The notes under the pieces: model-generated
Told to the model about the DNA's origin: nothing
The model's database searches: none
Seen by the model: the letters and a program-made list of their open reading frames with translations, nothing else
In this document: positions 40,651 through 57,586 of the stretch, one piece after another
How positions within the stretch are numbered: the stretch's first letter is position 1
Layout of the letters: each line of letters begins with the position of its first letter
Assembly (NCBI GenBank): GCA_030698395.1
Contig: JAUYKW010000018.1
Coordinates: forward strand, 44,726-108,725
DNA: 64,000 nt
Direction: 5' to 3'
Origin: a bacterium
GTDB lineage: Bacteria > Patescibacteriota > Patescibacteriia > UBA9570
Position numbers and translations under genes: made by a program

Positions 40651-40660
40651 TAAAATTTTT

Positions 40661-41710
40661 ATGAAAAAAGCATTACTAATTGGAATCACAGGACAAGACG
40701 GATCTTACTTAGCAGAACTATTATTAGACAAAGGCTATGAAGTTCATGGTACAATGCGGAGATCTAGCCAATTTAATACTGGACGAATTGATCACTTGTA
40801 TAAGGATCCACATTTAAATGGAGTAAGACTTTTTTTACATTATAGTGATTTAACTGATGGAAGTAATTTAGCTAGATTAATTAGAGAAATTAAACCAGAC
40901 GAAATTTATAATTTAGGTGCTCAAAGTCATGTGCGGGTTAGTTTTGATATTCCGGAATATACAGCTATGGTGACTGGATTAGGAACGCTTAAAATTTTAG
41001 ATGCGATTCGCGATGTAAAAAAGGATACAAAGTTTTATCAAGCATCAAGTTCAGAGATGTTTGGTTTAGTACAGGAAGTACCACAAAAAGAAGATACGCC
41101 TTTTTATCCAAGATCACCATATGCAGTGGCTAAAGTTTATTCATACTGGATTACTAGAAATTACCGGGAAGGATATGATCTTTTTGCTAGTAATGGTATT
41201 TTGTTTAATCATGAATCACCCCGACGTGGAGAAACATTCGTAACTAGAAAGATAACCAGAGCTTTATCTAAGATAAAATTGGGCATCGATAAAAAATTGT
41301 ATTTGGGCAACATGGATGCAAAACGTGATTGGGGATATGCTCCTGATTATGTTGAAGCTATGTGGATGATGATGCAACAAGATAAACCAGATGATTATGT
41401 AATAGCAACTGGGGAAACTCATTCAGTGCGAGAGTTTGTAGAAGTTGCTGCAAAATGTTTGGATATTGATGTTATTTGGGAGGGTAAGGGAGTTGATGAG
41501 AAAGGCTATAATAAAAAAACGGGAGAGGAAATTGTTAATATAGATCCTAAATATTTTCGACCAACTGAGGTTGATTTATTAATTGGTGATTATTCCAAAG
41601 CTAAGAAAGATTTAGGTTGGGAACCGAAAGTTACTTTTAAAGAGCTAACTCAAATCATGATAGATGCGGATTACGATTATTATGTACGCGAGAAAGGACA
41701 TATAAAATAG
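40661..41710 (+). CDS. gmd: GDP-mannose 4,6-dehydratase
   Basis: Motifs: [29 protein letters not shown]; [19 protein letters not shown] (catalytic YxxxK); [10 protein letters not shown]. Length 349 aa. Confidence 0.9.
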
Positions 41711-41711
41711 T

Positions 41712-42641
41712 ATGGATAAAAATGATAAAATATATATTGCTGGACACCGAGGATTAGTTGGTAGTGCGATAGTACGAAAGTTGGAAGCAGAGGGTTTTAC
41801 TAACATTATTAAGCGTACTAGAAAAGAATTAGATTTAGTAAATCAAGCAGCCGTTACAGAATTTTTTGCTACTGAAAAACCAGATTATGTATTTTTAGCT
41901 GCAGCTAAAGTAGGTGGCATTAATGCTAACGATATTTATCCTGGTGATTTTATTTATCAGAATTTACAGATTCAGAATAACATTATTAGTAATGCTAAAG
42001 AAGTTGGAGTTAAGAAATTATTGTTTTTAGGCAGTAGCTGTATTTATCCTAAATTGTCTAAGCAGCCAATGAAAGAAGAGTATCTTTTAACAGGAACTTT
42101 AGAGCCAACAAATGAACCGTATGCTATAGCAAAGATTGCTGGTATAAAAATGTGTCAATCATACAATAAACAATATGGGACGAATTTTATCTCTGTGATG
42201 CCGACAAATTTATTTGGTTTTAATGATAACTTTGATTTAGAAAAATCACATGTACTACCAGCATTATTACGAAAAATTTATGAAGCAAAAAAAAATAATC
42301 AATCCACTGTTACGGTTTGGGGAACAGGAAAGCCACGTCGTGAATTTTTGTTTGTTGACGATTTAGCTGATGCAGTTTATTTTTTGATGCAGAACTATGA
42401 TGAGGATGAAATAGTAAATATTGGCACTGGTGAAGATATTATGATTTCAGAGTTAGCAGAATTGATTAAGAAGGTAATAGGTTTTGAAGGCGAAATTGTA
42501 TATGACGCAAGTAAACCTGATGGAACTCCGCGAAAATTATTAGATGTAAGTAAATTAAATGGACTTGGTTGGAAAGCAGATACTTCGCTTGAGGACGGTA
42601 TTAGAAAAACTTTTGAATGGTTTCAGGCTAACTTGCCTTAA
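41712..42641 (+). CDS. fcl: GDP-L-fucose synthase (GDP-4-keto-6-deoxy-D-mannose 3,5-epimerase/4-reductase)
   Basis: The N-terminus [19 protein letters not shown] is typical of this family. Further motifs are catalytic YAIAKIAG and [23 protein letters not shown]. It is immediately downstream of gmd. Confidence 0.9.
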
Positions 42642-42643
42642 AT

Positions 42644-43414
42644 ATGAAGGTATCTATAATTACACCTTCATATAATCAGAAAAATTTTATTGCCCAAACA
42701 ATAGAAAGCGTTATTAATCAGCGTGGTGATTTTGAGTTGGAGTATATTATTATTGATGGTTCATCTACTGATGGATCAATTGATATTATTAAAAAGTATG
42801 CAGCAATGGATGCTAGAATAAAATGGCTTTCTGAAGAGGATCGTGGGCAATCACATGCAATCAATAAAGGATTAAAAATGGCTACTGGTGATATAGTTGC
42901 TTATTTGAATTCGGATGATGTTTATCTAAAAGATGCTTTAAAAAAATTAGTGGCAGAATTTTCCAAACAGAAAGACTTAAAATGGTTATATGGTGGTTGT
43001 AATATCATAGATGAATCTGGAGATGAAACACGAGGCATAATAACAAAATATAAAGAGTGGCTAGGAAAAAAATATTCGTATAACAAACTATTAGTAGTGA
43101 ATTTTATTAGCCAGCCAGCAGTTTTTTGGCGACGGGATTTATTAGATGAAATTGGATTTATCAATGAAGATGAGCACTTAGTTATGGATTATGAATATTG
43201 GTGCAGACTTGGCAAGAAGTACCAACCTTATAAGCTAACAGATAACATAGCTGCGTTTCGTTCGTATACTGATAATAAAAGTAGCCAAGGTTTTGTAAAG
43301 CAATTTAAGCGAGAAGCACAAATAGCTAAAAAATATTCCAATAGTTTTATATTAAACATTTTGCATTTGATACACGTAGGAGGAATAATTATGATTTATA
43401 AAATAATTTCTTAG
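42644..43414 (+). CDS. GT2 family glycosyltransferase
   Basis: Motifs: VSIITPSYNQKNFI; IIIDGSSTDGS; YLNSDD (DxD). Confidence 0.8.
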   Translation: MKVSIITPSYNQKNFIAQTIESVINQRGDFELEYIIIDGSSTDGSIDIIKKYAAMDARIKWLSEEDRGQSHAINKGLKMATGDIVAYLNSDDVYLKDALKKLVAEFSKQKDLKWLYGGCNIIDESGDETRGIITKYKEWLGKKYSYNKLLVVNFISQPAVFWRRDLLDEIGFINEDEHLVMDYEYWCRLGKKYQPYKLTDNIAAFRSYTDNKSSQGFVKQFKREAQIAKKYSNSFILNILHLIHVGGIIMIYKIIS

Positions 43415-44578
43415 ATGAAAATTCTTCAGGTTATTCCATATTTTGTGCCGGCCTTTAGTTATGGCGGTCCTATCCAGACATGTTTAGTTATATCTCAGCA
43501 CATGGTTAATAATGGCCATGAGGTAACTGTTGCTACAACAGATACTCTTGATGGTAAAGAGAGAATATATTTTCTAAATGAGGATATCGATGGAATTAGA
43601 GTTGTGAGGTTTCGGAATGTAAGTAATTCAATTGCAAAAAAAACTAATTTATTTTTGCCGATAGGTTTTAGAAAATGGTGTAAAGATAATATAAAACAAT
43701 TTGATATTATTCATTGTCATGATTTTTTTACGTACCAAAATATTGTAGTTAGGTACTATGCAAAGAAATATCACATTCCTTTCATAATTCAACCACATGG
43801 ATCTTTAGAGGATGTGCGATTACAGGCTAGGTTTGGTTTTATAAAAAGATTTTTTATTCGAAAAGTTCTTTTTTTATTATTAGAAGCTAAATATGTTATT
43901 GCTCTAACTAAAGCAGAACAACTGACAATAAATAAGATTGATTCAAATGCAAATGTTTCAATTGTACCAAATGGCATTAATTTGGATCAGTATTATGATG
44001 TTCAAGAAATTAATTTGCATGCGAAATATAATTTACCTGCAGATACAAAGTTAATTTGTTTCTTAGGAAGAGTACAATACATCAAGGGATTAGATCATTC
44101 CTTATTAACACTTAAGCATCTAGTTGGTAAGGTGGCATTTCATTTTTTTATTATCGGACCCAACGAAGGTGATGAACAACAACGATTAGAGAATATAATT
44201 AAAGAAGATAATTTAGAAAAATTTGTTACTTTTGTAGGATTATTATCTGGAATGGAAAAGAAGCAATTTATTAAATCATGTGATTCATTTTTAATGTTAT
44301 CACGCAGTGAAGGATTGCCAATATCTATTTTAGAAGCTGCGGCCGTTGGTTTACCGACTATGATTTCATATGAGTGTCATGTTCCAGAATTAGCAGTTTT
44401 AAATGCTGGGTACGAAGTTGATAAGATTGATTATGTTAATAATGCAAAAATACTCAAGAATTTTTTTGATTCTTCTGATATTTCAGATAACATGCGGATG
44501 CAAGCAAGGGCAGTAGTTGCGGATAAATTTTCCGTCCCAAAGATGGTAACCAAAATAAAGTCTTTATATCAGGATTAG
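43415..44578 (+). CDS. GT4 (group 1) glycosyltransferase
   Basis: The N-terminus KILQVIPYFVPAFSYGGP is typical of GT4. The C-terminal half has the EGLPISILEAAAVGLP (E-x7-E) motif. Confidence 0.8.
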   Translation: MKILQVIPYFVPAFSYGGPIQTCLVISQHMVNNGHEVTVATTDTLDGKERIYFLNEDIDGIRVVRFRNVSNSIAKKTNLFLPIGFRKWCKDNIKQFDIIHCHDFFTYQNIVVRYYAKKYHIPFIIQPHGSLEDVRLQARFGFIKRFFIRKVLFLLLEAKYVIALTKAEQLTINKIDSNANVSIVPNGINLDQYYDVQEINLHAKYNLPADTKLICFLGRVQYIKGLDHSLLTLKHLVGKVAFHFFIIGPNEGDEQQRLENIIKEDNLEKFVTFVGLLSGMEKKQFIKSCDSFLMLSRSEGLPISILEAAAVGLPTMISYECHVPELAVLNAGYEVDKIDYVNNAKILKNFFDSSDISDNMRMQARAVVADKFSVPKMVTKIKSLYQD

Positions 44579-46554
44579 CTATCTGGCGTATTTATTTTTT
44601 TGGTACCGTATATTGTACGGTATTTTTTGTGATTGAATTTGTAGAGCATCCATTGTGTTCGGTTGCCAATTCTCTGTTCATCTACTTTGGTAAATGCTAA
44701 AGGGTATTTATCTAATACCTTGTAAAATTCTTGGAGATCTTTTTGATTATTACTATTATTTAGGATCCAGTAATAATTAATTCCATTTTTACGTAACTTA
44801 TTTGTGAGTAGTTCATTTGGTTTGATGGTGAAATATCTTTGTTGGTAATTTGTGTCGAATGTTCTAATAAGGGCTACAGCGTGATTATTACGAATTTGTA
44901 TATCTGAGGAATAGTATTGAGTTTCATAGAAATGAGCATTACTAGCTATTAAACCATTATTAGATGCATTTTTTAATGAGTCTGTAGCGGTAGGTGCGCC
45001 ATAATCATATCCGTAAGTTGCTAAGGACAACTTGTTATTAAAATAAAAAGGAGCCATTTTTAAACAGAGTAAGGTAATTATTATTAATCCGAGGATGGGG
45101 TATTTCTGTTTGAGTTTTATCTTTGGGAATAATATGACTCCTATTAAGAGAATCACAAAAAGTGCAATAAAAATTATCGGTTTATAAGTTAATAGAGTTG
45201 CAAGAAATGAGGCATTTGCTAGTGCACTACCATATACAAGATCTTTGATATCAAACCAATACAAAATTACAAAAAATATAAATACTGATGAAAATATAAT
45301 TGATTGTCGTTTGGAGAATTTTGTTAGTATTTGGCGAGCGGCGAGAAATGTAAAGTAAATAATACAAACTAATATTGGCAATGTAACTCGGAAACCAATA
45401 ATGCTTTCAGCCTCATGATAATTCAGATAAACGAATACGAGGAGTAATGTCATCATTACAATGTCTGGTCGTATTTTACTATAATGTTTTTTAAAATTGT
45501 TAAATATTCGCTTTGCACTTATCCAAATCCCTAGAGATGTTAAAGGTAAAATAAAAATATTTAAATCTTGCTCGGAAAAATTATAAGAATAAATCAACCA
45601 AAGTTTTTGAAAGAAGTTAGCAGGTGCGCGTTGAATTTGAGATTCAACTAATCCTGTTGGAATTTCTCTTGAGTATTCCGCAATAGCAATTTTAGATTGG
45701 CTTAATTCACTTATTAGTGGAGTATCAGATGGGCTAAGAGAAAGAATTTGATCCAGCACAGAAAAAATAAGTTTGTTGATGAAAATGTATATATCACCAA
45801 ATACAAAACGAAGAAGATTTTCATATAAGCGGGGATATGGCAACATGTTAAAATCTAGTAATAGTATCGTTGCAATAAAAGTAGGGAAGGCAATTATTAA
45901 AGATTCTTTTATGATATATAATATTTTATATGATATTTCTTTATTTATTTTCCAAGAGTCTAGTATAGTAATTGTAAAAATCATTGGAGCAGCCAGCAAC
46001 AAATAGTAATCTTTTATCAACATTAGCAACAATAGGCCAAGACCAATTTGATATGCTTTGGCTTTTTTTGCCAGTAAGTAGACTAGGAAAGTAAATGCAA
46101 AAGTTGCTGGAATGTCTAGCATTAAACGAACCGAGAATATCCAAAAACCTGGAATTAGTAATAAGATAAAAAGAAACCACTTGCGTCTTTCCTTTTTAAT
46201 GTCTAAATGATTAGTAAGTAAATAAAGGGATATTATAAATCCAGCAGCGAAGATAAAAATTGGAATTCTATATTCAGTTAGAGTCTGAGGATTTGTGATT
46301 AGATTGTATAAAAATGCTACAAACGCCACTAAAAATGTATGCTCTGTATTAATGTTATACCAGGAAATTTCTCCATTAAATGCACCTTTGAAAGCGTTAA
46401 CAATGTTTGCATAGATATACTCATCAGGTGTGGGCCATATCCAGTTATTTAAAAGGGCAAGAAATATTAAGGAAAATAATAAAAAAAATATCAAGGTAGA
46501 ATGTTGTTTGAGGAATTTTACTAGTTGTTGTATTATCTTCATTTTATATCTCAC
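44575..46554 (-). CDS. GT-C-fold membrane glycosyltransferase (PMT/ArnT, GT39/GT83-like)
   Basis: It is 659 aa with about 12 TM helices. The first loop carries WPTPDEYIYANIV, matching the DE-x-Y catalytic motif of PMT/ArnT-type polyprenyl-phosphate-sugar-dependent transferases. The C-terminal soluble domain is about 160 aa. Confidence 0.6.
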   Translation of the reverse strand: MRYKMKIIQQLVKFLKQHSTLIFFLLFSLIFLALLNNWIWPTPDEYIYANIVNAFKGAFNGEISWYNINTEHTFLVAFVAFLYNLITNPQTLTEYRIPIFIFAAGFIISLYLLTNHLDIKKERRKWFLFILLLIPGFWIFSVRLMLDIPATFAFTFLVYLLAKKAKAYQIGLGLLLLMLIKDYYLLLAAPMIFTITILDSWKINKEISYKILYIIKESLIIAFPTFIATILLLDFNMLPYPRLYENLLRFVFGDIYIFINKLIFSVLDQILSLSPSDTPLISELSQSKIAIAEYSREIPTGLVESQIQRAPANFFQKLWLIYSYNFSEQDLNIFILPLTSLGIWISAKRIFNNFKKHYSKIRPDIVMMTLLLVFVYLNYHEAESIIGFRVTLPILVCIIYFTFLAARQILTKFSKRQSIIFSSVFIFFVILYWFDIKDLVYGSALANASFLATLLTYKPIIFIALFVILLIGVILFPKIKLKQKYPILGLIIITLLCLKMAPFYFNNKLSLATYGYDYGAPTATDSLKNASNNGLIASNAHFYETQYYSSDIQIRNNHAVALIRTFDTNYQQRYFTIKPNELLTNKLRKNGINYYWILNNSNNQKDLQEFYKVLDKYPLAFTKVDEQRIGNRTQWMLYKFNHKKYRTIYGTKKINTPDS

Positions 46555-46586
46555 TAGAAGCAGGCTTTATTATATAAAAAAGTCTA

Positions 46587-47450
46587 TTATCTCACCAATT
46601 TGAACGGGGATAGAATAGCTACTTTTGTAATTTTTATAGCATGAAATCCAATAAGTAGGACAATATGCTTTATTTTGTAGTATTGGTTGGGACAATTCTT
46701 TAATAAATATTTAATCATATAAATCATATTGCTGTGTGATTTTATATGAAAGGCATCATCAAAAGCTTGTTTGAGAGTTGGGTTTTTTATCCTAGATTCA
46801 ATTCCTGATTTAATCCCAGTATCGTGAGAAACAGCATCATAAGATACCACCATTTTAAAACCAGCCCTTTTTACTTGCAGAAAAAAATCATAATCTGATA
46901 GATAATGGGGAAAGCGTTTATAATCAAAGGCAACTTTAGAAAAAACTTCTATCGGTAGGAGCGTGAATCTGCCTGTCATTACATCAATCTGTCCATCATA
47001 AACACCATTTTCTTGAATTGGTATCAGAGGATATGTTCTGGTTTTCCATTTAGCTACATGCCCGCCACTAATTATTTTTCCCGTGGAATTTTTTATTGCT
47101 GCAGCAACGACAGCTCTATTATACTTCAAGCTAGTTTGATAGCAGATTTCTAAAGCATCTTTTTCTGGAAAGTGATCATTGTTAGCAAACAGAATGAAAT
47201 CTTCCGGTTGAGCTTCTTTTTTTATATACTCAACCCCCATAGCCATGGTTCTTGTCCAGAAAACGTCACCCTTAGTAGATAGTATTTTTACTTTTGGAAA
47301 ATGTTTTTTTATTGCTTCAACCGAACCATCTGTTGAAGCATCATCAACTACCACAATTTCAAAATCTTGCATTGTTTGGCTATAAATTTTTTCTATAAAC
47401 TTGAGCGTAGTGTCTCGACGATTATAAATGGCTGTTAATACATAAATCAT
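46587..47450 (-). CDS. GT2 family glycosyltransferase
   Basis: Motifs: YVLTAIYNRRDTTLKFI; VVVDDASTDGS; FANNDH. Confidence 0.75.
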   Translation of the reverse strand: MIYVLTAIYNRRDTTLKFIEKIYSQTMQDFEIVVVDDASTDGSVEAIKKHFPKVKILSTKGDVFWTRTMAMGVEYIKKEAQPEDFILFANNDHFPEKDALEICYQTSLKYNRAVVAAAIKNSTGKIISGGHVAKWKTRTYPLIPIQENGVYDGQIDVMTGRFTLLPIEVFSKVAFDYKRFPHYLSDYDFFLQVKRAGFKMVVSYDAVSHDTGIKSGIESRIKNPTLKQAFDDAFHIKSHSNMIYMIKYLLKNCPNQYYKIKHIVLLIGFHAIKITKVAILSPFKLVR

Positions 47451-47462
47451 AATTGATACAAT

Positions 47463-48635
47463 CTATTCAGAAAGTTCTAATAAATTATCAGCAAAGGCTT
47501 TGATGGTGAATTTCTGTTGGGAGCGTAGATAGTTACTTTCCAAAATTTTTGTTCGTTCAGTATCATCAAGATTTAAACAGAAAAGTATTTTTTCTATCAT
47601 GGATTGTTGATTTCCTTGCTGAAAGATAAATCTATCATCTCCTACAACTTCAGGGATTGCTCCATTGTTACTTCCAAGAATTAATGTTTTCGTCATCATA
47701 GCTTCAACCAAAACTCTTCCAAATAATTCATAGAAGTCTCTCTTTCCTTTATTAGTAGGCAAAATAAGTAAATCAATTATATTATATAGATATACTAGAC
47801 GATCGTAATCTTGGGCACCTAACATAAAGCAACGTTTTTCTAATTTATGTTCTGTAATGTATTTTTTACATTTCATAATATATTCTTCATTCCCATCACC
47901 AGCCACTACAAATGAAACATGTTCTGGTAAATCAGCTAATGCTTGAATTATATTCAATACTCCTTTTTCAGGAACAACTCGGCCAACAAAGCCGAGAATA
48001 TATTTTTGATCAAAAATAATTTCCTGCTTTAACTTTTTTACGAGTTTTGCACTTGATAAGTTAAGAGGTTTAAATTGAGCGGGGTCACTACTCCAGTAAA
48101 CAGTTTTAACTTTATTGCCGATTGGTAAAGCTTTCTTAATTCTTTCTTCTTGGCCATGGTTACGGGCTACAAATCTATGGGCAAATAACTTATTAAATTT
48201 TAAAAGTATTCTAACAGGCCATGGTAGGTAGCTGGAATCTTCAAAATATTTTGCCTGACTCCAGGTAACAATACGATATCGTTTAAAGAAGAGTAATTTG
48301 TAAAGAACTACAAAGAACGTATCGAATGTAAAGGTTTCATCGGTTACAATTATTATATCTGGATTATGTTGCATGATAGCCAAAGGTAAGGCTGGGAAGT
48401 ATCCAGATAATAGATACGTTTTTTTTCTGAATAATTTTCCCGGAATGTACTCAACATTATTAATCGTTTTACGTTCCAGAAAATATTGTGGCTGATATCC
48501 ATTGGTATATTGCACTTCTTTTGGTAAAACTACTTTTACCTCAAATCCAGGTCGATTTCCTATTTCACTAAAAAAATCTTGAAATTGGTGATTTGCCCCG
48601 TAATGGCTTAAGAATAGAATTTTTGTGATATCCAT
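47463..48635 (-). CDS. GT4 (group 1) glycosyltransferase
   Basis: It has the C-terminal GT4 Rossmann domain with ...GRVVPEKG... and ELFGRVLVEAMMTKTLILGSNNGAIPEVV. Start is at the Met at 48635 or 48683. Confidence 0.75.
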   Translation of the reverse strand: MDITKILFLSHYGANHQFQDFFSEIGNRPGFEVKVVLPKEVQYTNGYQPQYFLERKTINNVEYIPGKLFRKKTYLLSGYFPALPLAIMQHNPDIIIVTDETFTFDTFFVVLYKLLFFKRYRIVTWSQAKYFEDSSYLPWPVRILLKFNKLFAHRFVARNHGQEERIKKALPIGNKVKTVYWSSDPAQFKPLNLSSAKLVKKLKQEIIFDQKYILGFVGRVVPEKGVLNIIQALADLPEHVSFVVAGDGNEEYIMKCKKYITEHKLEKRCFMLGAQDYDRLVYLYNIIDLLILPTNKGKRDFYELFGRVLVEAMMTKTLILGSNNGAIPEVVGDDRFIFQQGNQQSMIEKILFCLNLDDTERTKILESNYLRSQQKFTIKAFADNLLELSE

Positions 48636-48721
48636 AAATTGCCTACTATTTTCATTGTAGCTTTGTGTATGGTAACAGAACAATGATATGAGGACAATAT
48701 CATGGATACATTATCATTGCC

Positions 48722-49573
48722 TTGTCACACAGCTATATTTTCAGTATAATATCGACAACTTTATATAACTCCAAATTCAACTGCATGAGCCTCATTTCGC
48801 ATCTAGCAACAGTTGCAAAGCCAAGTAATGTTTTGGAAAGCATTAAGAGTATCAAGTTATCGTCCCAATATTCGATTAAGGGGGACTATAAACGGATATA
48901 TCTATATCATATTCGAAAAACTGGTGGAACAAGCTTAAACCACATGTTTTTATCTCTAGGTGGTAGAGATGGCAGAGATGTTTATCGAGAGATGATGCAA
49001 AAGCCTAATCATCGAATAATTAGTAGCAATAAGGTATTTGCTGGTTTTAACCACAGTATAATTAAAAGGGGTAATTATTATTATGCTTTTTCTCATGAGC
49101 CAATGCATGAAGTTGTGATTCCTGATAAAACCTTTACTGTTACTTGTGTACGAGATCCCTTAGAAAGAGTTGTGTCTCATTATAAAATGTTGATTGAAAT
49201 GAAACAGGATAATGCAAAACATCCGGGAATGCAAAAACAAAGTAAATGGCTAGGAAATAGTTTTGAAGATTTTTTAAAGAATATTCCAAAAAAGTTTTTA
49301 TTAAATCAGTTATACATGTTTTCAAAGGAATATAGTATAGACGAAGCTACTACTAATATTGTATCTTGTTCACATTTTTTCTTCACAGAAAATTTTTCGC
49401 AAGGTGTTGCTGGGTTATCCGATAAGTTAGGAATTCAACTGCAAGCTCTTCATACTCGTAAGACCCCAAGTAGCATTATGGTTACAGAAAAAGAGCAAGA
49501 TCAGCTACGAGAAATGTTGGAACCTGAATATATTTTATATAAAAAATTATCACAAATAAAAGAATCAGCTTAA
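48722..49573 (+). CDS. Sulfotransferase (carbohydrate-sulfotransferase-like, Sulfotransfer_2-type)
   Basis: A 5'-phosphosulfate-binding loop is present (YLYHIRKTGGTSLNHMF). A 3'-phosphate-binding motif is present (TCVRDPLERVVSHYKML, RDPxxRxxS). The true start may be an internal Met. Confidence 0.6.
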   Translation: MSHSYIFSIISTTLYNSKFNCMSLISHLATVAKPSNVLESIKSIKLSSQYSIKGDYKRIYLYHIRKTGGTSLNHMFLSLGGRDGRDVYREMMQKPNHRIISSNKVFAGFNHSIIKRGNYYYAFSHEPMHEVVIPDKTFTVTCVRDPLERVVSHYKMLIEMKQDNAKHPGMQKQSKWLGNSFEDFLKNIPKKFLLNQLYMFSKEYSIDEATTNIVSCSHFFFTENFSQGVAGLSDKLGIQLQALHTRKTPSSIMVTEKEQDQLREMLEPEYILYKKLSQIKESA

Positions 49574-49575
49574 TT

Positions 49576-50316
49576 ATGAATGTTTTTAATATACCCTCAG
49601 TTATTTGGAAGAGAGTTAATAACAAAGTATATGGTTTACTAGGTAAAGATCCATTAACCAAGGAGAAAATTTATCAAGTTAAGACTGAACGAATCGGTAC
49701 AAATTATGGTGGCTGGGTGATTCCAGCAAATTATCTAACTAAAGATTCAGTTTGTTATTGTGCAGGCGTTGGTGAAGATGTTAGTTTTGATTTGGGTATA
49801 ATTAAAAAATATGTTTGTAAAGTTTATGCTTTTGATCCTACGCCACGCGCGCAAGAATACATAGAGAAAAATGTTGAGCCAGATCCAAATTTTGTTTTTG
49901 TGGACGTTGGTTTATGGGATGAAGACACCACCATGAAGTTTTATTCTCCAAAAAATCCAGATCATGTCTCACATTCGATTGTGAATCTACAGAAAACTGA
50001 TACTTATTTTGAAGCAAAGGTAAAAAGATTATCGACTATTATGAGAGAGTTACAGCATGATAAATTATCTTTATTAAAGTTAGACATTGAAGGTGCTGAG
50101 TATAAAGTGTTAGATTCTTTAGTAGATGATAAGGTTGATATTGATATATTATGTATCGAATTTGATGAGGGGCATACTAAAATGGACAATGATTATAAAT
50201 CTCGAATCAAAGGATCGTTAGAAAAACTTTTTGCCATGGGTTACGTGATGATAGATGTTGATCAGAGTTGTAATTACACCTTGATTAAAGAGAATATGTT
50301 AAGAGAATTGGCTTAG
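49576..50316 (+). CDS. FkbM-family methyltransferase
   Basis: The signature SLLKLDIEGAEYKVLDS is typical of FkbM. The SAM-binding region is CYCAGVGEDVSFDLG. Length 246 aa. Confidence 0.75.
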   Translation: MNVFNIPSVIWKRVNNKVYGLLGKDPLTKEKIYQVKTERIGTNYGGWVIPANYLTKDSVCYCAGVGEDVSFDLGIIKKYVCKVYAFDPTPRAQEYIEKNVEPDPNFVFVDVGLWDEDTTMKFYSPKNPDHVSHSIVNLQKTDTYFEAKVKRLSTIMRELQHDKLSLLKLDIEGAEYKVLDSLVDDKVDIDILCIEFDEGHTKMDNDYKSRIKGSLEKLFAMGYVMIDVDQSCNYTLIKENMLRELA

Positions 50317-50319
50317 AGC

Positions 50320-51570
50320 ATGAAAGTTGCACAGTTGAGTACAATGGATATCAAAGGAGGTGGCGGTTCTATGGCCGCCTATCGCTTGCATACTGCTTTG
50401 CGTGCTAACAATGTAGATTCTTCACTATTGGTAAAATTCAAATATAGTGATGATAAAAATGTAATCGGTAAACATCCGACTAACGAGTTAGTAAGAAAAA
50501 TTAGTTCGTTCAGTTCATTTATGGATGAAATTCCTGGTAAATTTTCTAACTCGCCTGATACGGTGTATCGTTCGAGTGCATGGTATCCGGATGGTGTGGC
50601 ACGAAAGTTAAAAGAGTTGAATCCTGACGTAATAAATCTACATTGGATTAATGGTGGCTTTGTGCGATTGGAATCTCTTGCTAAGTGGCAAGGGTCAATT
50701 GTATGGACGATGCATGATATGTGGGCATTTTGTGGCACAGAGCATTACACTAGTGATCAACGTTATCAAGAGGGATATTTAAAAACAAATCGACCAGCTG
50801 GAGAATCTGGATTTGATGTAAATCGTTGGACGTGGCAACGAAAACAAAAGGCATGGTCTACACTAACTGATCTAGTTGTAGTAACACCTAGTAAGTGGTT
50901 AGCAAGTTGTGTTCGAAAAAGTGTATTGTTCAAGAATTATCGAATTGAAGTAATTCCAAATAGTGTTAACCAAGAAATTTTTAAACCACAAGAAAAGATT
51001 GTGTTACGAAAGAAACATAATATAAATCCACAGAGTAAACTTATTTTGTTTGGCGCTGGAAATACTGCTAGTCCAAGAAAGGGAGTGGATTTACTAAAAA
51101 AAGCATTAAAAAAATTAAGTGTTAATGCTACACATAATTATATTGAGTTAGTAGTTTTTGGTAAGTATCAGCCAGAGGATTACAGTGATATTAATTTACC
51201 AATTAAGCATTTAGGTCATGTTGCTGGAGAGTCTGAGATTGCAGAAATATATTCTATGGCCGATGTATTTGTTGCTCCGTCCCGCCAAGATAATCTACCA
51301 AATACAATTGTAGAGGCTTTAGCTTGTGGAACACCATGTGTGGCATTTAATATTGGCGGCATGCCAGATATGATTGATCATCAAAATAATGGGTATTTAG
51401 CTAAAGCATTTGATGTGGATGAATTAGCTGCTGGAATTGTTTGGGTATTGGAAGATAAAGAACGATGGCAGAAGCTTTCTAGTCAATCTAGAATTAAGGC
51501 TGAAAATAATTATACATATTCAGAGCAAGCAAAAAAATATAGTGAACTTTATCAAAGCATCACTGTTTAA
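50320..51570 (+). CDS. GT4 (group 1) glycosyltransferase
   Basis: Motifs: VAQLSTMDIKGGGGS; C-terminal RQDNLPNTIVEALACGTPCVAFNIGGMPDMI (E-x7-E). Confidence 0.8.
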   Translation: MKVAQLSTMDIKGGGGSMAAYRLHTALRANNVDSSLLVKFKYSDDKNVIGKHPTNELVRKISSFSSFMDEIPGKFSNSPDTVYRSSAWYPDGVARKLKELNPDVINLHWINGGFVRLESLAKWQGSIVWTMHDMWAFCGTEHYTSDQRYQEGYLKTNRPAGESGFDVNRWTWQRKQKAWSTLTDLVVVTPSKWLASCVRKSVLFKNYRIEVIPNSVNQEIFKPQEKIVLRKKHNINPQSKLILFGAGNTASPRKGVDLLKKALKKLSVNATHNYIELVVFGKYQPEDYSDINLPIKHLGHVAGESEIAEIYSMADVFVAPSRQDNLPNTIVEALACGTPCVAFNIGGMPDMIDHQNNGYLAKAFDVDELAAGIVWVLEDKERWQKLSSQSRIKAENNYTYSEQAKKYSELYQSITV

Positions 51571-51582
51571 GGAGTTGTCTTT

Positions 51583-52479
51583 TTATTGACCTGCCTTATA
51601 TATAGCGTATCGATCAGCTAACCAATTTTGGGGAGATTGTTTTTTTGGTTGGAGTTTAGCTAGCTCGGATAAGATAGATTCAATATTATATCCAAGGAGG
51701 GATAATTTTTCTGAGTCTAATGAACGTAGATATTTTTTTGCGTACTGTATACGTAAATTTGTATTGAATGTAGTTTTCCATTTTTCTAATGACTTATTCT
51801 GTACCTGTTTTTCTTTAGCTATATAGGGATCTCCCATGGTGCCATGAAGTTTTTCTTTTTGAATATTTTGGATCATATTTGAATTGAATGGTATTTCTAG
51901 ATAGTTACAAATCTTCTCTGTAACTTCGCTTGATTTTTCTACTAACTCTTCATATTTAATTAATATACTTTTTTCTTTCAGCAATTCATATCCATCACTC
52001 AGGAGATGTGGACCTTCATACAGATCTGTATTTGAAGGTTTTACATTTAATTTACCAAAGTTCCATGTTTCAATCACTGAAGCTAATGTTGCCAAAGGAT
52101 TTCTGCCTAAAAAAATAAATTTTGCCTCAGGAAATAATTTTGCTATTTCTGGAATAATAAAATAGTAACGAGGAGTTTTATCAAGAAAATATTTTTCATT
52201 GTCACAAGCTGAACTATATATGTCAGTGACAAATTCTTTTAATGACTTATCATAAGAAAACATTTTTTTTGGAAGTTCTGAAAAAAAATCTTGTAGCGCT
52301 TGACGACAAACTTCCTTATCGTAATCTACTGTTAGATCATTTTGTTTTTTTGGATATAGGAGTGGTAACAATATCCATGGTTCAGATACAGAACAAATTT
52401 CTGGATGAGACATTAATATTTTCTGCAGTAAAGTTGAACCAGAACGAGGTGTGGAAAAGAGGAAGATTAAATTATCCAT
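51583..52479 (-). CDS. Sulfotransferase (Sulfotransfer_3-type, PAPS-dependent)
   Basis: Motifs: 5'-PSB loop FLFSTPRSGSTLLQKIL; 3'-PB region FIFLGRNPLATLASV. Length 298 aa. Confidence 0.7.
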   Translation of the reverse strand: MDNLIFLFSTPRSGSTLLQKILMSHPEICSVSEPWILLPLLYPKKQNDLTVDYDKEVCRQALQDFFSELPKKMFSYDKSLKEFVTDIYSSACDNEKYFLDKTPRYYFIIPEIAKLFPEAKFIFLGRNPLATLASVIETWNFGKLNVKPSNTDLYEGPHLLSDGYELLKEKSILIKYEELVEKSSEVTEKICNYLEIPFNSNMIQNIQKEKLHGTMGDPYIAKEKQVQNKSLEKWKTTFNTNLRIQYAKKYLRSLDSEKLSLLGYNIESILSELAKLQPKKQSPQNWLADRYAIYKAGQ

Positions 52480-53491
52480 TTTTTCTAATTAATTTGCTAT
52501 AAGCTAGAGCTAACATATCTTGAAGTTGAGTTTTTTTACAAGAAATTATTCTTCGACGTAAATCATTTGGTATTACTTGCTGAATATCATCTTGCTCATT
52601 TAATTCTTGTATTTCAGCAACATAATCTTTATTTTTTTCGTAGAGTATATCAGCGTATTCTGTTCTATCAGATAGCTTTGGATTATTATGTTCCTCAGGC
52701 CACTTTAAAAGTTGTTCTTGCAATTTAAAATAAAGTTTAACTTTTTCACTAGTTCGTAAACCATTAGTCCCAATTGGATGCCATGGGTGTGCCGTGTATG
52801 TGTCTGTAAGTACAGCTCCTTTGCTGTTAGCGGCCATTTCCAATCTGATACTGACATCTTCTCCAATTTTGGATAGAGAAGTACTCCAAAGAGGATTAGT
52901 GTCATATCCTTCTATTATATCCCAATACTTTCTTGCCGCGGATATCATTGGTCCAAAATTTCGGCGGGGTGGAAATAATTCAGGTTGTCTATATTTTGTT
53001 GGGCAAGTTGCTAGCACAGATGCTAGATCGTTGTTAGCATTTTGCCATTCCTTAAAGGATGCCCCAGCTGGGTATTGAGCCATTCTACGAAACGCATTAA
53101 ATACTTTGTACTTTCCTTGTTGATGATGCTTTGTTAGCACAGTTAGAAAGTCTTTAGGTAGAAGTTGATCTCCATCCATTACTGAAATTATATCGCCTTG
53201 AGATGCCGCTATGCCAGCATTATTACATTTTGATAAGTGATAAGCTTCAGTATTAACATTCTCGTCCAAATAAATTATCTTGATATTCATTTGGTCTTTA
53301 ACTTCTTTATGGCGATCGAACAGCGATTTTAATCCCTTTTTGTGATTATACTTATCGGCAAATTCACGGCTTCTTTGTTCAACATAAATAAGTTCAAAAT
53401 TATTCCTAGGGAAATCTTGATTTAGTAGACCATTAATTAGATGAAAAAAATTACGATAACTCGAGTCCCAACTAATGATAGAGTGTAACAT
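52472..53491 (-). CDS. GT-A-fold glycosyltransferase-like protein (GT2-related)
   Basis: It has ISVMDGDQLLP (DxD-like) after a Rossmann-like N-terminus. Length 339 aa. No close named family was recognised. Confidence 0.5.
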   Translation of the reverse strand: MLHSIISWDSSYRNFFHLINGLLNQDFPRNNFELIYVEQRSREFADKYNHKKGLKSLFDRHKEVKDQMNIKIIYLDENVNTEAYHLSKCNNAGIAASQGDIISVMDGDQLLPKDFLTVLTKHHQQGKYKVFNAFRRMAQYPAGASFKEWQNANNDLASVLATCPTKYRQPELFPPRRNFGPMISAARKYWDIIEGYDTNPLWSTSLSKIGEDVSIRLEMAANSKGAVLTDTYTAHPWHPIGTNGLRTSEKVKLYFKLQEQLLKWPEEHNNPKLSDRTEYADILYEKNKDYVAEIQELNEQDDIQQVIPNDLRRRIISCKKTQLQDMLALAYSKLIRKNG

Positions 53492-53495
53492 ATAG

Positions 53496-54467
53496 TTATT
53501 TTATATCAGTCAACCAAGCTCTTACAAGTTTGATTTCGTCGTTGGATACAAATCCATTTTTATGAAGAGCAGTGTAAACAATTTCTAAGTTTTTCAATAA
53601 ATCTTTACCTAGTTTTATATTTTGAAGTAATTCAATGATTGGTTTAGTGTTTTGATATACTTCAACTTCATCAGCAAAATCTTTCATTAAGTTGTGAGCA
53701 TTTCTTTCTTGGTAAACAGTTGCCTCAGTAAAACCTAAATGCATGCCATGTAGCCACATAATATGTTGTGCCAGATAACCTCTTAGAATATCAGTAAATC
53801 TAAAACTAACAGTTGCGGGGAGATATAATAATGGAAATGCTTTTTTTTGCCAGAAAGTATTTTGCGAATTAAACGGACAGTAACACTTTTTTGGTAAATG
53901 AATACTTTTTTTTCGATCGAATTTGGTAGTGTCGTTAAAGACTAAGCGATAAATGGCATCAACATCTGGATCTGTATCAGCTAAACCTTGCCATGCTCCA
54001 ATACTAGTTAATTTAGAATGTTGTTTTAACTTGCTCTTATTTTTTGTTTGAATGAGGTCTAACGGGTATCCTCGTGGCCAAATTAATTTCTTTGAAAAGT
54101 AATTGTATACATTATAATATTTGTCTTTTGTCTCTATACTTCTTTTGCTAGTAAAATCTGGACACTTCCAATGTTTGTATGGCAGATTGTCGTCATCTGT
54201 ATCATAGATAATATCTGCTCCTTGACGCATTGCATAAATATACCCGATGTTTTTTCTAGTATAGTGGTTATAAGGACTGTAGCGAACAAATTCGTAGCCT
54301 AGTTTTTTTTGATCTTGAACTGAAAGGAAGGTTAAGTTTTTTGAACTTTTAATTTGTGGAGTTTTTTTATCTCCAACAAGAACAACGTGCCAATCTGGAA
54401 TTTTTTCAAAAGCTTTTACCGCTTTAGTTCTGTCGTTAATGCTAGTTATGACTATGAATTTTTTCAT
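53496..54467 (-). CDS. GT75/RGP-like (DUF288/STELLO-like) protein; possible nucleotide-sugar mutase or glycosyltransferase
   Basis: It has KFIVITSINDRT...WHVVLVGDKKTPQI...RKNIGYIYAMRQGADIIYDTDDDNLPY. This parallels the RGP/UDP-arabinopyranose-mutase pattern (IV.T.R......W......H.I.V.DGD....I...........R..GY........YI...DDDC.P). Confidence 0.45.
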   Translation of the reverse strand: MKKFIVITSINDRTKAVKAFEKIPDWHVVLVGDKKTPQIKSSKNLTFLSVQDQKKLGYEFVRYSPYNHYTRKNIGYIYAMRQGADIIYDTDDDNLPYKHWKCPDFTSKRSIETKDKYYNVYNYFSKKLIWPRGYPLDLIQTKNKSKLKQHSKLTSIGAWQGLADTDPDVDAIYRLVFNDTTKFDRKKSIHLPKKCYCPFNSQNTFWQKKAFPLLYLPATVSFRFTDILRGYLAQHIMWLHGMHLGFTEATVYQERNAHNLMKDFADEVEVYQNTKPIIELLQNIKLGKDLLKNLEIVYTALHKNGFVSNDEIKLVRAWLTDIK

Positions 54468-55675
54468 GATAGTTGCGTAATTTTATAATCAGTTGGAGGA
54501 CAAGATCCTAAGACATCTCTGCGCGACACAATAAAAGGATCAATTACACTAGTTGGTTGCATTTCAAAGAATAATAATTGTGGACGGTAAAAAATTCCTG
54601 TATCAAGCAGTCCCAGCCCTAAGCTAATGCTGTAATTTCCGGGTGGAAGATTTGTATCTTCAGCAGAAATTTCAAGTTTATGTTTTCCTTTAGGAATGGC
54701 ATCTATTTTTGCTGTAACTGTCATGATGCGTGCTAACTGACTGTTAAATATTTGGATACCAACTCTAATATTATTGAGTTCTTTATCGGTGTTATTAGTT
54801 ACTAGCAACTCTGTAATCAGAGGCTTGCTGTACTGCATTTGGGACAATCTAATTTGTTCAATAGTAAAGTTTTTGATTTTTGTATCAAACGGACCAGTTC
54901 CTGATTCTTGAGAATTTGTCAGGCGTAGATATTCTTGAACAGCTTTGTCTGTATCTGCGATCGTTACAATTTTTCCTTGATTCAGCACAACGCATGATTT
55001 ACATAAGCTTTGAATTGCTCCCATATTGTGGCTAACAAAAATGATAGTGCGACCATCTTCTTTTGTTACTTCATCCATTTTGCCAAGGCACTTTTTTTGA
55101 AACTGGGTATCACCAACAGCTAGTACTTCATCTACTAAAAGAATCTCTGGTTCTAGATGGGCAGCTACAGCAAATGCTAAACGCACGCGCATCCCACTAG
55201 AATATCTTTTTACTGGGGTGTCTAAGAATTTTTCTACTTCTGCGAATTCAACAATTTCATCAAACTTTTTTGAGATTTCTCTTTTTGTCATGCCCAATAC
55301 AGCTCCATTTAGAAATACATTTTCTCGGCCAGTTAATTCTGGATGAAATCCAGTGCCAACTTCCAATAAGCTAGCAACTCTGCCACGTAAAGTTATTTTA
55401 CCAGTGGTTGGTGATGTGATGCGGGACAATACTTTTAATAGGGTACTTTTACCAGCTCCGTTACTACCGATTAATCCTATTACTTCACCTTTCTCTATAG
55501 AAAAATTTATATCTTTAAGTGCCCAGAATGTTTCTCGATGGGATTCTTTGTTTGTGAACCATTTTTTTGGATTTAAAGATTTAGCAATTACATCACGTAA
55601 AGCTACATAGGGTTCCATTTCCCCTAGTTGATATTGTTTTGAAATATTTTCAGCTAGAATTACAGGTTTGGACAT
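54464..55675 (-). CDS. wzt: ABC exporter ATP-binding protein, Wzt/TagH type, with a C-terminal substrate-binding beta-domain
   Basis: Motifs: Walker A GSNGAGKST; signature SSGMRVRLAFAVA; Walker B LLVDEVLAVGD. An extra non-ATPase domain of about 150 aa follows, as in O-antigen Wzt proteins. Confidence 0.85.
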   Translation of the reverse strand: MSKPVILAENISKQYQLGEMEPYVALRDVIAKSLNPKKWFTNKESHRETFWALKDINFSIEKGEVIGLIGSNGAGKSTLLKVLSRITSPTTGKITLRGRVASLLEVGTGFHPELTGRENVFLNGAVLGMTKREISKKFDEIVEFAEVEKFLDTPVKRYSSGMRVRLAFAVAAHLEPEILLVDEVLAVGDTQFQKKCLGKMDEVTKEDGRTIIFVSHNMGAIQSLCKSCVVLNQGKIVTIADTDKAVQEYLRLTNSQESGTGPFDTKIKNFTIEQIRLSQMQYSKPLITELLVTNNTDKELNNIRVGIQIFNSQLARIMTVTAKIDAIPKGKHKLEISAEDTNLPPGNYSISLGLGLLDTGIFYRPQLLFFEMQPTSVIDPFIVSRRDVLGSCPPTDYKITQLS

Positions 55676-55679
55676 AATT

Positions 55680-56501
55680 TTATACTACATCTGCGAACTT
55701 TTGTTCGGTTTTACGGAAATAAAATAAGCCTACAATAAATAACAATATTGAAATACCTATAGACATGGCTAGACTTTCTAGATTAATTGGCGTATTTCCA
55801 ATAATGATGGCACGAGCGTTTTCAATTACACCAGACATTGGATTAAGATTTAGAATCCATTGGTATTTCTCGCCAGCAATTTTTGCGGGATAAATTACGG
55901 GTGTTAAAAAAAGTAGCATTTGAATAAAAAACGGAATAATATATCGGACATCACGATATTTTACATTTACTGCTGATAGAAATAATCCCATACCTAAACT
56001 AGTGAAGTAGGTAATGAGAATCAATATTGGAATAAGAAATAGACTAATTGGTTTAGGGACGAATTGATAATAAAACATCATGGCACAGAGGATGGAGCTG
56101 GCAATTAAGAAATCAATAAAAGCAACAATTACTGTTGATGATGGTAATATTAATCTTGGAAAATAGATTTTTTTGATCATCTCTTGATCAGATACTAAGC
56201 TACCGCTAGCACTTGATAGTGCTTGTGAGAAAAAGAGCCAGAAAACTAAACCAACATAAACAAATATTGGATATGGAGCACCGCTAGAATCTATTTGAGC
56301 TAGGTTTCCAAAAAAGACTGTAAAAATTACCATACTTATGATAGGTACAAAAAAAGCCCACAATATTCCAATGGCTGTTTGTTTGTATCTTACTTTTACA
56401 TCTCTAAGTGCAAGAAAGTAAAAGAGATCTTTATATTGGAGCATTTCCCGGAAGTCTATCCGTAGCCAGCTACGTTTTGGTAGGATAATTGTTTCTTTCA
56501 T
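55680..56501 (-). CDS. wzm: ABC-2 exporter permease, Wzm/TagG type
   Basis: It is 273 aa with six TM helices. The N-terminus (ETIILPKRSWLRIDFREMLQYKDLFYFLALRDVKVRYKQTAIGILWAF) is typical of polysaccharide ABC-2 permeases. It is immediately upstream of wzt. Confidence 0.85.
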   Translation of the reverse strand: MKETIILPKRSWLRIDFREMLQYKDLFYFLALRDVKVRYKQTAIGILWAFFVPIISMVIFTVFFGNLAQIDSSGAPYPIFVYVGLVFWLFFSQALSSASGSLVSDQEMIKKIYFPRLILPSSTVIVAFIDFLIASSILCAMMFYYQFVPKPISLFLIPILILITYFTSLGMGLFLSAVNVKYRDVRYIIPFFIQMLLFLTPVIYPAKIAGEKYQWILNLNPMSGVIENARAIIIGNTPINLESLAMSIGISILLFIVGLFYFRKTEQKFADVV

Positions 56502-56575
56502 TTACGAAGAATATTTATAATTGAGCAGGCATACTCTACTATTTTTAAGGGTATAAGTCAACAAGTTTTATTAGT

Positions 56576-57586
56576 CTATGCTTTTTCCAGAAATACAATA
56601 AAGCTCTCTCCTTTGCCGGCTTTATCGCGTATCCGCCATGCTGGAATGGTGAAGTAACTATTCAATAATGCTAGAACTCTCAAACTGAATTCTTTGAAAC
56701 TTAAGTATTTAATATATTCTAATGTATTCATGTTCTTAGGACGCGGTTGCCAGATGGTTTCTTTGTTTCCCAGTGATACTCGTTCTTTTTTATTGGTAAG
56801 ATATTGTAATGCAACCCAACCCATTGGAGTGGTAGTTTCGGATTTAAGAACTTTGAATCCAGTTTCTTTAGCCAGAACATTTATACTTTTTTGTGAAAAA
56901 AAATTTACGTGATATGGAATGTGCCAGTTAATCCATTTTTTTTCGGTTCGCTTTGCATTTGCACTTTCTATATTTGGTGTACTAAGAATTATTTTACCAC
57001 CAACCTTTAATTTTTTTGATATTTTGATTAAAAAATCTTTAGGATCAGGTATATGTTCTATTAACTGACTCATTGTGATGAAATCAAAGAAATCATCAGG
57101 GTAAGGCATTGTGTCTATGTCGCCAAAATGTATTTCTAAATTTAGTTCGTCTGCAATTGGTTTTATATTTTTATCTAGTTCTGTTCCGTATGCATCACCA
57201 CCAAGTTTAGTAATTTCTAAAAGAGATACTCCGTTTCCGCAACCTATATCCAAAACTTTGCTACCAGCAGTTATATAACTATGACATTTATTTTTTTCTC
57301 CTTGTAGATTGTTTTTGTCGCTATTTGGTTTTCTAGAGAAATTATCAGCAGTTGCTTTTACATCATCAGCAGTCATTGCTTTTCTGGGATAATAATCTGT
57401 ATAAATACTTTCTAATACTTCACTAGATGGAATTGGGTTAATTTCAGCAAAGTTACATGATGAACATTTATTCACTGAGTATTGTTCAGGGTATCCATAA
57501 CGATCATCATGCATTTCATTGTACAGGAGTGTCGTCGGAGATTTGCATATTTTGCAGTATAATACTGCATTTTCTTCACTTAGCAT
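56576..57586 (-). CDS. Class I SAM-dependent methyltransferase with an N-terminal Cys4 zinc-ribbon
   Basis: The N-terminus has CKICKS...CSSCNF. Motif I is VLDIGCGNGVSLLEI. Length 336 aa. It is co-oriented with wzm-wzt. Confidence 0.7.
   Translation of the reverse strand: MLSEENAVLYCKICKSPTTLLYNEMHDDRYGYPEQYSVNKCSSCNFAEINPIPSSEVLESIYTDYYPRKAMTADDVKATADNFSRKPNSDKNNLQGEKNKCHSYITAGSKVLDIGCGNGVSLLEITKLGGDAYGTELDKNIKPIADELNLEIHFGDIDTMPYPDDFFDFITMSQLIEHIPDPKDFLIKISKKLKVGGKIILSTPNIESANAKRTEKKWINWHIPYHVNFFSQKSINVLAKETGFKVLKSETTTPMGWVALQYLTNKKERVSLGNKETIWQPRPKNMNTLEYIKYLSFKEFSLRVLALLNSYFTIPAWRIRDKAGKGESFIVFLEKA

Follow-up and report, generated by a model that had tools for sequence, protein, structure and literature searches.

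What would two sulfotransferases of different families be doing among the glycosyltransferase genes of a bacterium with a reduced genome? The question is raised by a stretch of 64 kb (the window, below) inside the 112,874 bp contig JAUYKW010000018.1 of assembly GCA_030698395.1, a metagenome-assembled genome. A further 4.6 kb upstream of it were taken from a Logan contig (L090), so that about 68.6 kb were read. The two genes, here called ST1 and ST2, carry the names 'sulfotransferase family 2 domain-containing protein' (MDP3970733.1) and 'sulfotransferase' (MDP3970736.1), given in NCBI by the Prokaryotic Genome Annotation Pipeline (PGAP). The best answer, to which we assign a probability of about 0.7, is that both products are cytoplasmic O-sulfotransferases that depend on 3'-phosphoadenosine 5'-phosphosulfate (PAPS), belong to different families and decorate a fucose-containing, methylated surface glycan. 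Sequence similarity marks the host as a Kerfeldbacteria-like member of the Patescibacteria: the RNase J encoded in the window matches a protein of Candidatus Kerfeldbacteria at 81% identity, the other named matches come from Kerfeldbacteria or other Patescibacteria, and part of the window shares synteny with a contig from Patescibacteria (L086). The phrase 'reduced-genome organism' in a first-pass annotation of this DNA is therefore a fair description. A literature search on sulfotransferases in Patescibacteria returned no relevant report.

ST1 matches the Pfam family PF03567 (Sulfotransfer_2) with 35.6 bits (gathering score 22; E 1.4e-8), although over profile positions 3-140 of 252 only. The 5'-phosphosulfate-binding (5'-PSB) loop HIRKTGGTSL and the 3'-phosphate-binding (3'-PB) motif RDPLERVVS, on which the first-pass annotation had based its assignment, translate as claimed at 48908-48937 and 49151-49177 of the plus strand. 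In a family alignment of 34 homologues (44-55% identity) the 5'-PSB residues H42, K45, G48, T49 and S50 and the 3'-PB residues R123, P125, R128 and S131 are invariant, and these PAPS-binding residues align with 'PKTASTS' and 'RDPIERLVS' of the heparan sulfate 2-O-sulfotransferase HS2OST. Equally invariant is a motif S103-H104 at the end of the strand formed by residues 100-103. His104 lies three residues after the catalytic His position of HS2OST, in a weak alignment, and is a candidate for the catalytic base. By sequence, the similarity of ST1 to solved structures is marginal (phmmer against the PDB, HS2OST with E 0.75). The AlphaFold2 (AF2) model, with a mean confidence (pLDDT) of 93.9, finds PAPS sulfotransferases as its top structural matches, the nearest being heparan-sulfate O-sulfotransferases, which agrees with a sulfotransferase fold and not with a P-loop kinase of another type. 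The heparan sulfate 2-O- and 6-O-sulfotransferases, also of PF03567, share 16-19% identity with ST1; they are Golgi membrane proteins, whereas ST1 is a soluble bacterial protein of 262 aa. Transmembrane (TM) segments were sought in ST1 and in ST2, and none were found.

The start of ST1 needs a correction. The gene had been placed at 48722..49573, and the open reading frame (ORF) is indeed there, but the TTG at 48722 is merely the start of the longest ORF and is probably 63 nt early. Both public gene calls use the ATG at 48785, which is most likely the true start. The best sigma-70-like site within 44000-58000 sits on top of that TTG (48722-48750); it is a match to the consensus only, and sites of this kind are in total no more numerous than expected from shuffled sequence.

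ST2 has the fuller family match. It aligns with PF13469 (Sulfotransfer_3) over profile positions 2-215 of 216, at 108.6 bits (gathering score 27; E 7e-31), and with PF00685 at 44 bits. All three Pfam families proposed for the check are thus matched, PF03567 by ST1 and the other two by ST2, with both proteins above gathering scores. Its motifs PRSGSTLL and RNP, likewise claimed at first pass, are encoded at 52426-52449 and 52096-52104 of the minus strand. In one public gene call ST2 begins 22 codons too late, with a product of 276 aa (Logan contig L001, 3496-4326); this would cut off the PRSGST loop, and since the family as a whole is conserved there from residue 1 onwards, the 298 aa form is the correct one. 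Among 32 aligned homologues the invariant residues include P11, R12, G14, S15, T16, E33-P34-W35, D100-K101-T102-P103-R104, R126, P128 and S134. E33 and K101 align with the Glu of 'GEETR' and the Lys of 'NKDP' in the tyrosylprotein sulfotransferase TPST1, and R126 and S134 with the Arg and Ser of its 'RD...S'; E33 pairs also with the Glu of 'PPELH' in the sulfotransferase (ST) domain of CurM. The counterparts of these four residues in TPST and CurM ST are the catalytic and PAPS-binding ones. When ST2 or its family profile is compared with the PDB by sequence, the matches are CurM ST, the OLS ST domain and TPST1/2 (E 2e-16 to 1.8e-23), the two limits being those of CurM ST with ST2 itself and of OLS ST with the family profile. 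The AF2 model of ST2 has a pLDDT of 92.3, and in a Foldseek search of the PDB its top 50 matches are all PAPS sulfotransferases, the best being TPST (E 1.7e-10, TM-score 0.70). The fold is thus that of a sulfotransferase and not of a kinase.

Are the two enzymes unrelated, as was first proposed? By sequence they are: kinship between ST1 and ST2 was tried and rejected, the hhalign probability between the two family profiles being 0.3%, and 'two distinct families' is right. The word 'unrelated' does not hold for structure, since both have the same sulfotransferase fold. The pairing is a common one. A second-family sulfotransferase, detected with an iterated ST2 profile, lies within 10 kb of the ST1 homologue in 16 of the 43 ST1-homologue loci that have full flanks, and in Flexistipes three ST2 paralogues occur in one locus, interleaved with genes of the glycosyltransferase (GT) family GT2. 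ST1 and ST2 most likely sulfate different positions or different residues.

Nor are such enzymes scarce. A word-index protein search gave 436 relatives of ST1, and an exhaustive search with the ST1 profile gave 386 cluster representatives at E <= 1e-30 among 1.84 billion. Relatives occur in at least 201 of 185,579 GTDB species across many phyla, the taxa including Planctomycetota, Desulfobacterota, Cyanobacteria, Bacteroidota, Chloroflexota, Actinomycetota, Proteobacteria and Ca. Falkowbacteria; the best ST1 match among GTDB representatives is 58% identical. The relatives of ST2 number 3685 at E <= 1e-5; those of named organisms that match best (46-52% identity) belong to Deferribacter, Flexistipes and Maribellus. 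With such numbers, the first-pass statement that carbohydrate sulfation is rare in bacteria was overstated.

What do the neighbouring genes say? A Pfam scan of the ORFs bears out that the sulfotransferase genes are embedded among glycosyltransferase and export genes, and that an FkbM methyltransferase and a GT4 enzyme lie between ST1 and ST2. The locus extends over about 18 kb (39.6-57.6 kb), is of the Wzm/Wzt, i.e. ABC-transporter-dependent, type and holds nine glycosyltransferases (Table 1). It also encodes GDP-L-fucose synthesis, through Gmd (TIGR01472, 577 bits, cutoff 415) and Fcl (NF047922, 511.7 bits, cutoff 500). Operons are suggested by gene spacing: the gaps in ST1-FkbM-GT4 on the plus strand are 2 and 3 bp, and in the minus-strand block every gene after the first is separated by 4 bp or overlaps by 4-8 bp. 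ST2 runs convergently to the GT4 gene and stands at the end of the wzm-wzt operon. GT4 homologues are found near ST1 homologues in 24 of the 43 full-flank loci. As a module, Wzm, Wzt, FkbM, ST1, class I methyltransferase, GT4 and GT2 recur in a Nitrosomonadales metagenome-assembled genome (MAG), in Desulfobulbus rhabdoformis and in a Patescibacteria MAG.

Table 1. Features of the glycan locus and their coordinates in the window
Feature	Coordinates	Strand	Support
GacI/PpgS-like GT2 + DUF2304 (GacJ-like), Gmd, Fcl, GT2, GT4	39644..44578	+	Pfam, NCBIfam
Polytopic membrane protein (659 aa, 10 TM, no Pfam family), GT2, GT4; divergent from ST1	44575..48683	-	Pfam, NCBIfam, TM scan
Sigma-70-like promoter match TTGTCA-17-TATAAT, divergent intergenic region upstream of ST1	48722..48750	+	11/12 consensus match
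ST1, soluble Sulfotransfer_2-type PAPS-dependent sulfotransferase, 262 aa, MDP3970733.1	48785..49573	+	Pfam, family alignment, AF2 model
FkbM-family S-adenosylmethionine (SAM) methyltransferase, 2 bp after ST1	49576..50316	+	PF05050 53.3 bits (cutoff 22.7); TIGR01444 64 bits (cutoff 37.7)
GT4 glycosyltransferase, 3 bp after FkbM	50320..51570	+	PF00534 105.8 bits, PF13439 42.6 bits
ST2, soluble Sulfotransfer_3-type PAPS-dependent sulfotransferase, 298 aa, MDP3970736.1	51583..52479	-	PF13469, alignment, AF2, Foldseek
GT2-like glycosyltransferase; stop overlaps ST2 start by 8 bp	52472..53491	-	PF00535 31.9 bits
STELLO-like glycosyltransferase	53496..54467	-	PF03385 54.2 bits, profile positions 1-103/387 only
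Wzt ABC ATPase with ~150 aa C-terminal extension (possible carbohydrate-binding domain)	54464..55675	-	PF00005 89.7 bits
Wzm ABC-2 permease	55680..56501	-	PF01061 68 bits; 6 TM-like segments
Class I SAM methyltransferase, first gene of minus-strand operon	56576..57586	-	PF13489 87.9 bits

A further feature is the tie between ST1 and the FkbM methyltransferase. Proteins of more than 500 aa make up 11 of the 150 best ST1-family representatives, and in five of the ten long homologues that were scanned an FkbM domain is fused to the ST1 domain. The other partner domains are GT2, Methyltransf_11, a TylF-type O-methyltransferase and Sulfotransfer_4. These multidomain proteins are 600-1260 aa long (P0364-P0380, P0459, P0475; loci L031 2306-4768 and L067 6253-9204). 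A search with a profile built from ten FkbM domains found an FkbM-like ORF within 10 kb of the ST1 homologue in 11 of 80 loci, adjacent or fused in five of the 80. Such a Rosetta-stone pattern of fusion and adjacency points to one substrate for both enzymes and suggests that sulfation and methylation by ST1 and FkbM are coupled. The recurrent fusion of ST1 with FkbM and the association with wzm-wzt are mildly new.

How might the product be made? From the gene content we infer the following activities, their timing and their order. With a polyprenyl carrier as the base, the GT2 and GT4 enzymes of the locus would build the glycan at the membrane's inner face. It would be O-sulfated and O-methylated at the cytoplasmic face, because PAPS and SAM are cytoplasmic. 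ST1 would act as a unit with the adjacent FkbM methyltransferase, and ST2 is probably co-transcribed with wzm-wzt and two glycosyltransferases. The Wzm/Wzt ABC transporter would then export the sulfated, methylated glycan, and further decoration outside the membrane, by a GacI/J-type route, is possible. As a member of the Patescibacteria the host probably has no outer membrane, so that one would expect the glycan to be linked to wall, lipid or protein and not to form an O-antigen of lipopolysaccharide (LPS).

In architecture a close parallel is the group A carbohydrate of streptococci, a wall glycan exported by an ABC transporter (GacDE) in a cell without an outer membrane, with side chains added by GacI, GacJ and GacL. 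The GT2 and DUF2304 genes at 39644-40650 (plus strand) resemble GacI/GacJ, and polytopic membrane proteins of the window could act as GacL. The likeness stays at the level of architecture: the streptococcal pathway is without sulfation and its backbone is a rhamnan, while the glycan of the window would contain fucose. The GT2 and DUF2304 genes overlap by 16 bp, the best NCBIfam matches of the GT2 protein are PpgS (118 bits) and AglJ (107 bits), and GacJ belongs to DUF2304. The arrangement is that of GacI/GacJ or PpgS/Rv3632, which provide a polyprenyl-phosphate sugar for extracytoplasmic glycan decoration. Three polytopic membrane proteins, of 621, 522 and 659 aa, are encoded at 28962-30827 (plus strand), 37815-39383 (minus strand) and 44575-46554 (minus strand). 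Each has 10-11 TM-like segments and no significant Pfam family, and that of 659 aa has a weak NCBIfam match (26 bits) to a 'cell surface glycopolymer formation' family. They are candidates for GT-C, ligase or GacL-like enzymes. The STELLO-like protein (323 aa) matches its family through its C-terminal 100 residues; it has no NCBIfam match and no homologue in the 80 ST1-linked loci.

Could the sulfate have a second role, as a signal for export? Methyl, methyl-phosphate or 3-deoxy-D-manno-octulosonic acid (Kdo) caps serve as export signals in E. coli O8/O9a, A. aeolicus and K. pneumoniae O12. By analogy, ST1 and FkbM (and/or ST2 or the class I methyltransferase) might modify only the non-reducing terminal sugar, and the sulfate or methyl cap might stop elongation and be the export signal that the C-terminal domain of Wzt reads. 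This would be a variant of the proposal above and does not exclude it; it is possible but doubtful. The best PDB match of the window Wzt is the A. aeolicus Wzt that bears a carbohydrate-binding domain (CBD; 8dku, E 1e-68), with an alignment over residues 43-354. There is also a match to Wzt_C, but a weak one, its 21.9 bits lying below the Pfam cutoff of 30.4. Clear Wzt_C domains are present in the Wzt proteins beside ST1 homologues in L084 and L085 (Nitrosomonadales and Desulfobulbus loci). Yet the C-terminal 153 aa of the window Wzt have no detectable similarity to the Wzt of other ST1-linked loci: a shared cap-binding domain was looked for by tblastn, no match at E <= 1e-3 was obtained outside the host's own organism, and conservation of the cap is therefore not supported. 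A Wzt-like ATPase accompanies ST1 in at most 18 of the 43 full-flank loci, an upper bound, since the iterative 'Wzt' profile may catch other ABC ATPases, and close ST2 homologues occur in loci of the Wzx-flippase type.

The enzymes themselves give some further hints of a terminal modification. FkbM-type enzymes include RfbT of V. cholerae, and the FkbM protein that adjoins Wzt in L086 matches the RfbT family. ST1 domains lie within long multidomain proteins of methyltransferase and glycosyltransferase domains, an architecture known from WbdD-like terminators. Compared with cap-dependent export by E. coli O9a WbdD and by A. aeolicus WzmWzt, the locus is alike in its Wzm/Wzt with a C-terminal extension of Wzt and in the methyltransferase genes that flank the transporter; it differs in being without a WbdD-like kinase. 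In the wb cluster of A. salmonicida a conserved sulfotransferase-domain ORF of 216 aa, ORF19, directly follows wzt, and the O-antigen structure is without reported sulfate in bulk (PMC4483657). One may speculate that a sub-stoichiometric terminal modification explains the missing sulfate there. Against a sulfate cap, the caps known for Wzm/Wzt systems are methyl, methyl-phosphate and Kdo, and sulfate is not among them (PMC9445017).

Several points weigh against a sulfated glycan as the product. The acceptor of ST1 and of ST2 is read entirely from the gene neighbourhood, and the closest relatives of ST2 with a solved structure do not act on sugars: TPST sulfates protein tyrosine and CurM ST an acyl-ACP hydroxyl (ACP, acyl carrier protein). 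NoeE (NF052394) is the only NCBIfam match of ST2, and a partial one (residues 4-141; E 6.5e-24); at 84.3 bits, where the cutoff is 500, ST2 falls outside that equivalog and is related to NoeE only distantly. ST2 also lacks a C-terminal tail of about 25 aa that its homologues have; its end lies 12 bp from the convergent GT4 stop. An initiating phosphoglycosyltransferase (PF00953, PF02397; WecA/TagO or WbaP type) was not found among the scanned ORFs of the window, though such a gene may be encoded in another part of the genome. Finally, no gene for PAPS synthesis (kinase for adenosine 5'-phosphosulfate (APS), ATP sulfurylase), for the CysQ/3'-phosphoadenosine 5'-phosphate (PAP) phosphatase or for a sulfate transporter was found in the window, in the extra 4.6 kb or in the ST1 loci of two other Patescibacteria, L029 (Falkowbacteria) and L086.

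Do the relatives of ST2, then, point to another kind of acceptor? One or both enzymes might sulfate a tyrosine of a protein or peptide, as TPST and RaxST do, or a lipid or small metabolite; the structures and sequences closest to ST2 are indeed tyrosylprotein sulfotransferases and the acyl sulfotransferase domains of CurM and OLS. Such an acceptor is very improbable. ST2 has the fold of TPST and of CurM/OLS ST, their loop PRSG(S/T)T and, at aligned positions, their Glu, Lys, Arg and Ser, but where TPST acts on protein tyrosine and CurM/OLS ST on a beta-hydroxyacyl-ACP, ST2 and its close homologues sit in a context of polysaccharide assembly. ST2, the final gene of the wzm-wzt operon, has an 8 bp overlap with a GT2 gene, and its homologues at 46-52% identity are interleaved with glycosyltransferases and flippases. 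As for ST1, the nearest structures are carbohydrate sulfotransferases and its domains are found fused to GT2 and to sugar-type methyltransferase domains. No candidate peptide substrate and no polyketide synthase (PKS) gene was seen in the window. A carbohydrate acceptor, read from the context, is well supported.

Which sugar might it be? NoeE of Rhizobium sp. NGR234 is a Nod-factor fucose 3-O-sulfotransferase that sulfates C3 of 2-O-methylfucose (PMC5080398). The locus in the window similarly joins GDP-L-fucose synthesis, methyltransferases and sulfotransferases, and by this analogy fucose can be guessed as the acceptor of ST2. The substrate of NoeE is a lipochitooligosaccharide, whereas that of ST2 would be a polymer.

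From where would the sulfate donor come? The search for PAPS genes included tblastn, with the APS-kinase-, CysD-, CysN- and CysQ-family proteins of a Deferribacter locus as queries and the window and all 90 loci as targets. In the extra 4.6 kb upstream (L090) there are none either; the ~68.6 kb read are a very small part of the genome, too small for this absence to prove anything. Homologous loci do carry such genes. In five loci the ST1 homologue has a homologue of cysC, cysDN or cysQ no more than 10 kb away, and in one of these (L048) a cysC-like match directly abuts the ST1 gene. The closest named homologue of ST2, from Deferribacter thermophilus (52% identity), belongs to a Wzx-type polysaccharide locus and has two APS-kinase genes together with CysD-, CysN- and CysQ-family genes within about 7 kb. 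Such neighbours speak, in both families, for enzymes that depend on PAPS and act on a glycan. A literature search for APS kinase in the candidate phyla radiation (CPR) found nothing relevant.

It might be argued that the sulfotransferase genes are silent, having been acquired horizontally with the glycan locus by a host that can neither make nor obtain PAPS. The lack of PAPS genes in the sequence read and in the two other Patescibacteria loci would fit this, as would the shortened C-terminus of ST2 and the nearest homologues, which are just 52-57% identical and mostly from other phyla. We consider it quite unlikely nevertheless. The ORFs of ST1 and ST2 are intact and keep all family-invariant residues, the genes are tightly packed in operons, and the locus has the same GC content as the genome around it (0.27-0.36 for the locus genes, which brackets the window mean of 0.35). 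ST1 homologues are present in other Patescibacteria too (L029, L086), and the genome inspected amounts to about 68.6 kb only. Active sulfotransferases that decorate a glycan remain the preferred explanation.

Polysaccharide loci with several sulfotransferases have already been described in cyanobacteria, Vibrio and others; the patescibacterial host is mildly new. The synechan locus xss of Synechocystis has two, xssA and xssE, and the capsule locus of Vibrio sp. KMM 8419 has three (PMC13125312, PMC11641403). Like the locus considered here, these have their sulfotransferases among glycosyltransferases, with export by Wzx/Wzy or by an ABC transporter. They differ in the host, which here is a Patescibacteria bacterium, and the Vibrio locus has its own cysNDC, a hallmark of such loci according to its authors (PMC13125312, PMC11641403), whereas no PAPS genes were found in the window. 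For the ~68.6 kb read, the lack of PAPS genes nearby is mildly new as well.

Some further observations concern the rest of the window. A second glycan module at 30831-37550 encodes an ArnC-like GT2, a GNAT protein, a GT87, a LegC/PseC-type aminotransferase, a WbuC cupin, GtrA and an epimerase. It is partly syntenic with L086 (10784-14450), where GT2, GNAT, GT87 and aminotransferase directly follow the ST1 homologue. About 15 kb separate this module from ST1 in the window, so the locus has been rearranged between relatives. At 24930-26534 (plus strand) there is a full-length Elp3-type radical-SAM/GNAT enzyme of tRNA modification (TIGR01211, 523 bits, cutoff 350), a family that is mainly archaeal and eukaryotic and stands out in a bacterial genome. 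Four large ORFs at 1671-8093 (470, 828, 383 and 308 aa) are without Pfam or NCBIfam match, and an ORF at 5836-6987 lies in a stretch with a GC content of 0.44, where the window as a whole has 0.35. Ribosomal protein S6, encoded at 57817-58470 (plus strand), is 217 aa long; its Pfam S6 domain takes up only residues 4-93 and is followed by a long C-terminal extension. A pyruvate, phosphate dikinase (PPDK) protein is encoded at the window end. Rfam and tRNA scans of the window found no RNA feature.

What does the pair of genes mean for the organism? If ST1 and ST2 are active, a Patescibacteria (CPR) cell would have a sulfated surface glycan, which raises the question of whether the host, from a group known for reduced genomes, makes PAPS itself or depends on a partner cell. 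Apart from this, the annotation is correct but routine; NCBI already names both proteins sulfotransferases. Two further proposals, which do not exclude each other, go beyond this and are unlikely: that a sulfated, methylated terminal sugar made by ST1 and FkbM is a new cap and export signal for a CBD-bearing Wzt, or that the host lacks a PAPS pathway and takes activated sulfate or its precursors from a partner cell to build the sulfated glycan. Should the cap be real, sulfate would join methyl, methyl-phosphate and Kdo as a cap chemistry. For glycobiology, ST1 and FkbM constitute a defined, uncharacterised enzyme pair, with a possible role as a terminator of glycan chains.

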